Below, piece by piece: positions 4,616-4,737 of a stretch of 43,050 nt of DNA. The stretch spans positions 181,347 through 224,396 of the forward strand of contig CAZNRH010000001.1 in the NCBI GenBank assembly GCA_964575755.1, in the 5' to 3' direction. Made by a program: the position numbers and the translations under genes. Each line of letters starts with the position of its first letter. The stretch's first letter is position 1. Under the pieces are notes generated by a model. That model saw only the letters and a list, made by a program, of their open reading frames with translations. It made no database searches and had not been told where the DNA came from. Origin of the DNA: an uncultured Candidatus Saccharibacteria bacterium. GTDB taxonomy: Bacteria; Patescibacteriota; Minisyncoccia; Phycocordibacterales; JABMNX01.

Positions 4616-4737
4616 ATGGATCCCGTACGAAATCGCGGACACTTAACACAATATATTATGAAAAAGTCGATAATTAATAGAAGATTTAATCTAGTGACAG
4701 AGACTGTTTAAGTCTGTGTCCTATTTCGTTCGGGATG
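4616..4737 (+). repeat. start-codon-anchored helix element, copy C2 (upstream of rmuC)
   Basis: Arms 4620-4633 and 4723-4736 pair over 13 of 14 positions. A second helix is GGACAC (4637-4642) with GTGTCC (4716-4721). The flanking direct repeat is ATGGAT on both sides. Mini-ORF at 4658-4711. Confidence 0.85.

Follow-up and report, generated by a model that had tools for sequence, protein, structure and literature searches.

The closest described systems to the element reported here are the Correia elements of Neisseria, the enterobacterial ERIC sequences and the pneumococcal RUP elements. Like it, they measure about 100-150 bp, carry hairpin-forming inverted repeats and occur in many copies; they also have a target-site duplication, lie near gene starts and become part of mRNA. 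Elements of the Correia/ERIC type duplicate the dinucleotide TA, lie at variable distances from genes and are found in both orientations (PMC10969869 and general knowledge). Rickettsia palindromic elements (RPEs) are palindromic and mobile, reside in a reduced genome and are tolerated in coding sequence by way of translation (PMC10969869). A 2024 review of prokaryotic non-autonomous DNA transposons (MITEs) does not mention insertion at start codons (PMC10969869). Our literature searches returned nothing relevant on MITEs in CPR bacteria, MITEs at start codons, the arm sequences described below or leaderless genes in Patescibacteria. In operons, an upstream ORF can be coupled to the following gene through junctions such as ATGA or TAAnnATG. 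Transposons of the piggyBac/IS1380 group generate a 4-bp duplication of the TNNA type, have ends that begin with CC(C) and show asymmetric spacing of their terminal and subterminal repeats.

The window analysed here (the whole stretch of 43,050 nt, from an uncultured Candidatus Saccharibacteria bacterium) contains, within 43 kb, five copies of an element of 113-116 nt, each placed before a functionally unrelated gene. Homologues of RmuC place the organism of the window in Candidatus Paceibacterota. One joint reading probably accounts for the five copies, namely a MITE that sits at start codons, serves as an mRNA leader and couples its own reading to the expression of the gene. The insertion biology in this reading is well supported; the cause of the start-site placement and orientation and the mechanism of expression are what we infer. 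Unlike the Correia, ERIC and RUP elements, this one has a 4-bp duplication instead of TA, stays in register with the start codon, which it rebuilds with its own last base, and occurs in a single orientation. It recalls the RPEs in that 4 of 52 copies among the matches listed fuse in frame and in that an arms-only mini-copy lies within a QueD-like gene. However, an RPE is an internal in-frame part of a protein, translated within its host, whereas this element lies mostly at codons 1-2 with a separate upstream ORF, and all five window copies have stops in the upstream frame. Open frames that end 4 nt before the gene ATG, or overlap it, resemble operon coupling, but here the upstream ORF would arise from transposon insertion into a leaderless gene and not from an upstream gene. 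The resemblance to piggyBac/IS1380 may be a lead or a coincidence: the element too has a 4-bp duplication of TNNA type, ends that begin with CCC and asymmetric repeat spacing, and piggyBac CCCTAGAAAGATA has TAGAAA in common with the element's CCCGTTAGAAAT, but its duplication differs from TTAA, and the sequences searched held no transposase.

Five copies of one element

Copies were located by searches for each arm, by alignment and with an nhmmer model, and the downstream genes were identified from Pfam and annotated relatives (Table 1). The element has terminal inverted repeats of 13 bp, Y-CCCGTNNGAAAT...ATTTCNNACGGG-R. At the rmuC site (4616-4740) the complete unit reads ATGGA T CCCGTACGAAAT CGC GGACAC ... 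GTGTCC T ATTTCGTTCGGG A TGGAT. All five copies point in the direction of the following gene, and the 3' end of each falls exactly on the ATG of that gene, which agrees with the original prediction that the downstream ATG opens the real gene. The flanks were likewise as described there: ATGGAT on both sides before rmuC, ATGAAT on both sides before cysS, and ATGAAT/ATGAAA at the P-type ATPase, rplI and pepA genes. The upstream ATG opens a dead-end ORF in every case, again as anticipated, with lengths of 9, 31, 20, 25 and 13 codons. Six copies had been counted; five show the claimed architecture, and a sixth was found neither by nhmmer with a model of the five nor by mismatch-tolerant arm searches nor by a scan for ATGRAW...ATGRAN flanks combined with a fold. 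The weak nhmmer match at 14613-14658 is AT-rich sequence only. The insertions are also present in other samples, on contigs of the same genome; when the proteins at the window ends were used as queries to walk outwards, only short contigs of that genome were recovered.

Table 1. Positions of the element copies and associated features in the window, with the corresponding empty sites of relatives
Feature	Position	Strand	Sequence or context
Copy 1, element, 113 nt	1807..1919; unit with flanks 1802-1923	+	before P-type cation ATPase gene
Copy 1, duplication TGAA	1803-1806 and 1920-1923	+	gene ATG 1919-1921
Copy 1, upstream ORF, 9 codons	1802-1831	+	MNPVRSHEH, then stop
Copy 2, promoter-like site	4581..4609	+	TTGAGA-17-TAGGAT, TG before the -10; consensus match only
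Copy 2, element, 115 nt	T4621 to A4735; unit with flanks 4616-4739	+	before rmuC
Copy 2, terminal inverted repeats, 13 bp			TCCCGTACGAAAT / ATTTCGTTCGGGA, one mismatch; inner helix GGACAC / GTGTCC
Copy 2, 5' duplication TGGA	4617..4620	+	with native A4616, the original start codon
Copy 2, upstream dead-end ORF, 31 codons	4616-4711	+	opened by the original start codon
Copy 2, 3' duplication TGGA	4736..4739	+	
Working rmuC start codon	4735-4737	+	A4735 (end of the element) and TG (from the duplication)
Copy 3, element, 116 nt	10447..10562; unit 10567-10443	-	before cysS
Copy 3, duplication TGAA	10566-10563 and 10446-10443	-	gene ATG 10447-10445
Copy 3, upstream ORF, 20 codons	10567-10505	-	
Copy 4, element, 114 nt	12984..13097; unit 12979-13101	+	before rplI (L9)
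Copy 4, duplication TGAA	12980-12983 and 13098-13101	+	gene ATG 13097-13099
Copy 4, upstream ORF, 25 codons	12979-13056	+	
Copy 5, element, 114 nt	36382..36495; unit 36500-36378	-	before pepA (M17 aminopeptidase)
Copy 5, duplication TGAA	36499-36496 and 36381-36378	-	gene ATG 36382-36380
Copy 5, upstream ORF, 13 codons	36500-36459	-	
rmuC site, empty			...ATGGATTTT in L125, L130 and L133; window ATGGA[T..A]TGGATTTC
rmuC site, empty versus filled			...caggATGGATTTTACA (L130), ...aatcATGGATTTTACC (L125); window ...acagATGGA[T..A]TGGATTTCACG
ATPase site, empty versus filled			tatactagaaaaacatATGAAAGAT (L125), single ATGAAA; window tatactaaggcataATGAA[T..A]TGAAAAAT
rplI site, empty versus filled			tatactagctccatATGAAAGTT (L125), single ATGAAA; window tatactaccaagcatATGAA[T..A]TGAAAGTA
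pepA site, empty versus filled			...ataatgcATGAAAATAACC (L139), single ATGAAA; window aaagaATGAA[T..A]TGAAAATAACT

Four of the five window copies fold as RNA into a long terminal helix with an inner GGACAC/GUGUCC helix (z-scores of -2.9 to -6.0). The individual values are -3.51 for copy 1, -2.85 (-35.1 kcal/mol) for copy 2, -3.64 for copy 3, -5.99 for copy 4 and -0.18 for copy 5, whose arms have decayed, whose outer helix is weak and which has lost most of the helix; altogether the fold is significant in seven of eight copies tested. Both helices contain compensatory changes, among them the double change of copy 3, whose arms are a TTAG/CTAA variant relative to the other copies. Such covariation is equally expected if the inverted repeats co-evolve as DNA. 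Counts of G.U against A.C in the terminal helix (7 versus 6, with the duplication position excluded) give no decisive sign of selection on RNA structure.

Empty sites in relatives

Syntenic relatives, with RmuC 77-91% and PepA 78-79% identical, are without the element at all five window sites, and at four of the five they show a single ATGRA in its place. This is the outcome that a check on empty sites had been proposed to reveal. The rmuC site is empty in five relatives, the two more distant of which have diverged N-termini. At the cysS site the relatives are also empty, with N-termini that have diverged. No copy of the element was detected by nhmmer anywhere on the contigs of these relatives.

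Related elements in other genomes and metagenomes

A scan for the 3' arm in one genome per species revealed the same unit directly before start codons in metagenome-assembled genomes (MAGs) of Paceibacterota, Doudnabacteria and Saccharibacteria. Two loci from this genome scan, L001 and L004, proved to be chance matches. In metagenomes, a pattern with the two arms fixed and the flanks left free yielded at least 119 loci, and slightly relaxed arms brought the set to at least 157 elements in 130 sequences from metagenomes and MAGs; because near-perfect arms were demanded in the metagenome scan, this sample is biased to young copies. Several metagenome contigs hold three or four copies. Among the matches listed, the arms are nearly invariant save for two central positions that vary in a compensatory manner (TA/TA, AC/GT, AG/CT and AA/TT), and they are nearly identical across the Paceibacterota, Doudnabacteria and Saccharibacteria MAGs. 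Interior sequences divide into several unrelated subfamilies, with little conserved from one to another; in the subfamily of the window, the interior islands GGTCG and TAGGG are conserved. The window had no Rfam match at the gathering threshold, and two permissive scans gave only matches at chance level (E > 1). The family is large, widespread in CPR/Patescibacteria and other uncultivated bacteria and, apparently, undescribed. At one locus, L084, a mini-copy consisting of nothing but the arms sits in frame within a QueD-like gene.

A target-site duplication of 4 bp

The original prediction had pointed to the copy with G at the fourth flank position on both sides as a sign of target-site duplication. 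That match is indeed seen in the rmuC copy, but it is weak evidence alone, and the family was therefore tested as a whole. Among the matches listed, found with the flank-blind pattern, the 4-mers at positions -5..-2 and +2..+5 are identical in 88 of 156 copies, whereas shuffled pairings of the same 156 copies averaged 18.6 identical 4-mers and never exceeded 29. Each of the four positions agrees in 71-78% of the 156 matches listed. Outside them the agreement falls to 53% at N1 (-6 versus +1; shuffled, 37%) and 35% at N6 (-1 versus +6; shuffled, 28%) among the matches listed, and in copies away from start codons the agreement at N1 is no better than chance (32/80 of those listed). The duplicated 4-mers are of at least 16 kinds, among them TGAA (39), TAAA (12), TCAA, TTTA and TGGA (6 each), TTGA (4) and TGCG (3). 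Copies with different flanks, whose existence the original prediction had left to a wider search, do occur elsewhere: the flanks vary from copy to copy (ATGAA, ATGGA, ATGCG, GTAAA, GTCAA, GCAAG and others) and, among the matches listed, mostly match within a copy.

The boundaries of the element follow from the bases next to the duplication. Among the matches listed, bases -1 and +1 pair as C.G 78 times and as T.A 70 times, and so are complementary in 148/156; both bases are therefore part of the element. Eight copies among those listed have a perfect 4-mer duplication together with an N1 that differs from N1', seven of the form ATGAAC[..]GTGAAx and one GTGAAT[..]ATGAAC, so it is the element, rather than the target, that determines the base with which the downstream start codon begins. 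Hence, the element's last base supplies the initial A or G of the downstream start codon, and the recurrent ATGRA(T) is made up of a native A, TGRA as the duplicated part and the T with which the element begins. The duplication has the form TNNA or TGNN, and the target in the window is A followed by the duplicated TGRA, that is, coding bases 2-5. A 6-bp duplication is excluded, since an empty ATGAAA site turns into 5' ATGAAT, and the register analysis, together with the empty sites, rules out one of 5 bp. Duplication at the start codon, as originally proposed, is thus borne out by the empty sites and the family statistics, with a length of 4 bp (TGRA) in place of the 5-6 bp suggested.

Placement and orientation at gene starts

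An ORF of at least 60 codons begins exactly at the last base of the element, after CGGG, in 76 of 157 copies among the matches listed, and never in both orientations of one copy. Apart from two tandem pairs, in which the first member is an exception, none of the listed copies with an ATG junction lies away from a true gene start. Of the 65 listed copies off start codons in the flank-blind set, 25 are 2-30 nt upstream of a start, and many of these 25 immediately precede a Shine-Dalgarno sequence, for example GTAAAGGAG...ATG. A stop codon occurs within the duplication in 12 of the copies listed, and 24 of the 76 start-codon copies listed have a 5' flank without a start codon. By rough gene calls, about 20 gene starts in the window read ATGRA, and 25 other ATGRA sites are non-coding. 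The window also has 598 intergenic TNNA sites, none of them occupied, and all five insertions are at gene starts. The window alone speaks modestly against a sequence preference combined with purifying selection (p ~0.02), and this combination leaves the family-wide pattern unexplained.

The ends are symmetric, so insertion in either orientation would rebuild a start codon. Comparison of the interiors of start-site copies among the matches listed gave 57 pairs that are more similar in the same orientation and none that are more similar when reversed. In the subfamily of the window, 23 listed copies are sense and none antisense to the gene; the spacers of this subfamily are asymmetric in length, with 3 nt before GGAC on the 5' side and 1 nt on the 3' side. 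Sense-strand interiors contain more A than T in 55 of the 76 start-site copies listed, and runs of five or more T number 14 on the sense strand versus 30 on the antisense strand among the matches listed. The scarcity of sense T-runs would fit selection against terminator-like structures.

Promoters and reading through the element

Among the matches listed, TANNNT occurs 6-9 nt upstream of N1 in 42% of start-codon copies, against a background of about 10%, and copies elsewhere have TANNNT without such a peak. In copy 2, the -10 hexamer of the promoter-like site ends 6 nt before A4616, a spacing that fits a leaderless transcript starting from the original ATG. At the matching position, the empty relative L130 has TAATAT, 6 nt and ATG. 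TATACT, similar to a -10 hexamer, lies 8-9 nt upstream in copies 1 (1788-1793) and 4 (12964-12969), and likewise in their empty counterparts. No promoter was predicted inside the elements; TATTTC in the 3' arm is a poor -10 hexamer. From these consensus matches, the target genes are probably leaderless or nearly so, and the inserted element would become the 5' leader of the mRNA.

Among the 52 listed start-site copies that keep a 5' start codon, the frame of this upstream start runs through the interior without a stop in 24. Control frames are stop-free less often: 4 and 8 copies for the other sense frames, 8, 12 and 3 for the antisense frames, and a mean of 6.9 with a maximum of 15 for shuffled interiors. 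The 24 open frames end at the TAA of the 3' arm, 4 nt before the gene ATG, in 12 cases, overlap the gene start as ATGA in 8 and fuse with the gene in frame in 4. This arrangement suggests translational coupling by termination and reinitiation, or fusion. By contrast, all five upstream ORFs of the window stop early, after 9-31 codons, so the coupling model is not directly applicable to them. An internal ATG mini-ORF is kept in all five window copies; it ends about 23 nt before the gene ATG in three and runs into or past the 3' arm in two. Candidate routes to the downstream ATG in the window are distant re-initiation, opening of the helix by upstream ribosomes, RNase III processing and independent initiation.

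Taken together as one mechanism, insertion takes place after coding base 1 and duplicates bases 2-5 (TGRA), leaving the original ATG upstream, and the downstream start codon is rebuilt from the terminal purine of the element and the duplicated TG. Ribosomes, as the family statistics lead us to propose, would begin at the original ATG, enter the element and open the long terminal helix. Termination would follow at or beside the rebuilt start, on the TAA lying 4 nt ahead of it or on the TGA within ATGA, and then re-initiation; in rare cases a ribosome may continue into the gene in frame. Either copies in the sense orientation alone would survive, or they alone would be made. For the window copies, re-initiation across 23-90 nt, or independent initiation, must be assumed.

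Nature of the element and rival explanations

The features found are those of a MITE: small size, absence of a transposase ORF, terminal inverted repeats, duplications of fixed length and varied sequence, empty sites and dispersed copies. It is unlikely that this is a purely selfish MITE with neither start targeting nor a role as RNA, in which a preference for ATGRA-like or TNNA sites and the lethality of genic insertions would leave the observed sites by survivorship. In the window, about 20 of the roughly 45 non-coding ATGRA sites are gene starts, so that p ~0.02 is modest; other subfamilies occupy TAAA, TCAA and CAAG sites off start codons, copy 5 is decaying, and the upstream ORFs of the window are all truncated. 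Yet a flipped copy would rebuild ATG equally well, and the orientation counts among the matches listed are 23:0 and 57:0. Nor would survivorship of a selfish element account for an upstream frame that is open three- to six-fold more often than control frames, or for the lack of ATG-junction copies off true gene starts, tandem pairs aside, both among the matches listed, or for the vacancy of all 598 intergenic TNNA sites in the window. A site-specific or guided recombinase (a tyrosine or serine integrase, or an IS110-like or IS200/IS605-like system), for which the repeat would be a crossover core or guide match, is less probable still. It would explain the strict orientation as well, the repeat lies against the terminal base pair and overlaps with it, and no DDE transposase partner emerged from the window ORFs or the related loci searched. 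However, the repeat takes at least 16 different forms with a fixed length of 4 bp, N1 agrees at chance level off start codons, and the ends are perfect inverted repeats, not two hairpins of like orientation, all of which is typical of duplication by staggered cuts. Palindrome-associated elements derived from IS200/IS605 have a like-oriented subterminal hairpin at each end, but here there is a 4-bp duplication and the two ends pair together as inverted repeats; to our knowledge, IS200/IS605 and IS110 elements show no such target duplication.

Two further explanations were weighed. In one, the element is a vertically inherited cis-regulatory leader RNA, a riboswitch or protein-binding structure of which the flanking repeats are a functional part. 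The near identity of the arms among Paceibacterota, Doudnabacteria and Saccharibacteria MAGs, the significant fold with covarying helices, the subfamily islands GGTCG and TAGGG and the constant sense position directly before ATG are what such an RNA would show. It is nevertheless very improbable, being largely refuted by the empty sites, where orthologues in relatives are cleanly without the element. Moreover, the downstream genes (ATPase, rmuC, cysS, rplI and pepA) are unrelated, the unpaired flanks covary as direct repeats, a pattern for which a helix offers no account, most of the interior differs from one subfamily to another, and Rfam gave no match. The other, a programmed translational bypass of the kind known from T4 gene 60 and the byp elements of mitochondria, would make the two ATGs take-off and landing codons around a hairpin. 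Identical codons do flank a stable hairpin, and the helix sets the two ATGs side by side, but 24 of the 76 start-codon copies listed are without a 5' start codon, the take-off codon is followed by AAT CCC GTT and not by a stop, and the enrichment of open frames through the element argues for reading and not jumping. We give bypass the least credence of all.

Returning to the MITE, the cognate transposase that the original prediction had proposed to search for did not come to light in the window ORFs, in about 850 kb of related loci or in viral contigs. Pfam identified no transposase domain in the 20 window ORFs. In the related loci, inverted-repeat pairs 0.4-9 kb apart enclose genes for FtsK, a glutamate-racemase-like protein and ABC transporters, with no transposase, and the viral contigs scanned for the element gave 0 matches. 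A more specific proposal, which we put forward as doubtful, is that the transposition machinery itself recognises the leaderless start of transcription and translation, perhaps by way of the open promoter complex that lies a few bases upstream, and always inserts the same way round, which would make this a start-codon-targeting transposon. If true, the element would be a portable leader, through which genes that were leaderless would come under coupling to an upstream ORF and under the gating of a hairpin. Were the enzyme also capable of precise excision, like that of piggyBac, this conversion could be undone.

Implications for CPR genomes

Genomes are tiny in CPR/Patescibacteria, and neither the initiation of transcription and translation in these bacteria nor their mobile elements are well understood. 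A transposon family that keeps in step with start codons, rebuilds the codon with its own terminal base and survives in a single orientation would be unusual among bacteria in the specificity of its insertion. Each insertion can be regarded as a natural experiment on leaderless initiation, in which the original start is turned over to an upstream ORF and the new start is hidden at the base of a helix of 14-20 bp. The elements could also serve as strain-level markers in metagenomes. For annotation, they matter in that gene callers extend ORFs into them; in the window, the cysS and ATPase ORFs were stretched into the element in this way.

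Association with translation-initiation regions

The element family is tied to translation-initiation regions also in Shine-Dalgarno-using hosts. One subfamily, with C..G ends and the interior TCCAGCGGGGCA...CAGCGGGGCATT, is found at many metagenome loci (e.g. L019, L028, L035, L103 and L111), where its site is not the start codon but GTAAA directly 5' of the Shine-Dalgarno sequence (GTAAAGGAG..ATG). Tandem pairs of elements occur at two further loci, L076 and L077; in both, one spacer of 5-6 nt (ATGAAT or ATGAT) is common to the two elements. At L076, an AGGAGG precedes the first ATG of the pair by 10 nt, so that two elements stand between the Shine-Dalgarno sequence and the gene. 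Within the window, mechanical ORF calls for the P-type ATPase gene and cysS run upstream into the element, and automatic annotation is likely to place both start codons wrongly.

The flanking repeat is offset by one base in a few gene-start copies (L008, L066 and L090), which have TATGAC or GGTGAC on the 5' side and GTGAAA, GTGAGT or GTGATT on the 3' side. This shift fits a 3-bp duplication (TGA) or the loss of 1 nt at the 5' junction. In addition, a QueD-like ORF at L084 contains a mini-element, ~45 nt long and in frame, that consists of the two arms only. This mini-element resembles the Rickettsia palindromic elements (RPE) in being an insertion within a protein.

Coordinates of ORFs, elements and repeats (positions in the window unless a locus is named)
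Feature	Position	Strand	Remark
Mini-ORF, copy 2 (rmuC)	4658-4711
Mini-ORF, copy 4 (rplI)	13018-13074
ATPase ORF call	1877-4594		TTG at 1877
cysS ORF call	8933-10474		ATG at 10474
Tandem pair	L076 2610-2830
Tandem pair	L077 6131-6366
Arms-only mini-element	L084, around 795-840	-	within ORF 670-1080; peptide ..INPVRKKGAKKRKLSNGVNP..
Direct repeat, 189 nt	27826-28014 and 28264-28452		438 nt apart
Surface-protein gene	26230-30195	-	1321 aa

Element interior and alternative folding

An internal ATG mini-ORF is kept in all five window copies, at equivalent positions in the three not tabulated. It ends in three of them at a TAA in the loop of the small hairpin (GACTGTTTAAGTC), ~23 nt before the ATG of the gene, and in the remaining two it runs into or beyond the 3' arm. 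Alignment of 24 copies of the window's subfamily from many genomes revealed, in addition to the arms, the short interior islands GGTCG, TTATnAA and TAGGG, whose conservation extends to distant genomes. For the inner helix of these copies there are two alternative registers, GCGGA/UCCGC, with six compensatory changes, or GGACRC/GYGUCC. In AT-rich subfamilies (e.g. L062, L073, L046, L053 and L055), an interior (TA)ACGGG is able to pair with CCCGT(TA) of the 5' arm. Such pairing can form an alternative local hairpin; with this hairpin in place, neither the 3' arm nor the start codon would be paired.

Another repeat in the window is a pair of 189-nt direct copies, 83% identical, in the gene for a surface protein that has Ig-like domains; the two copies probably represent a repeated domain.
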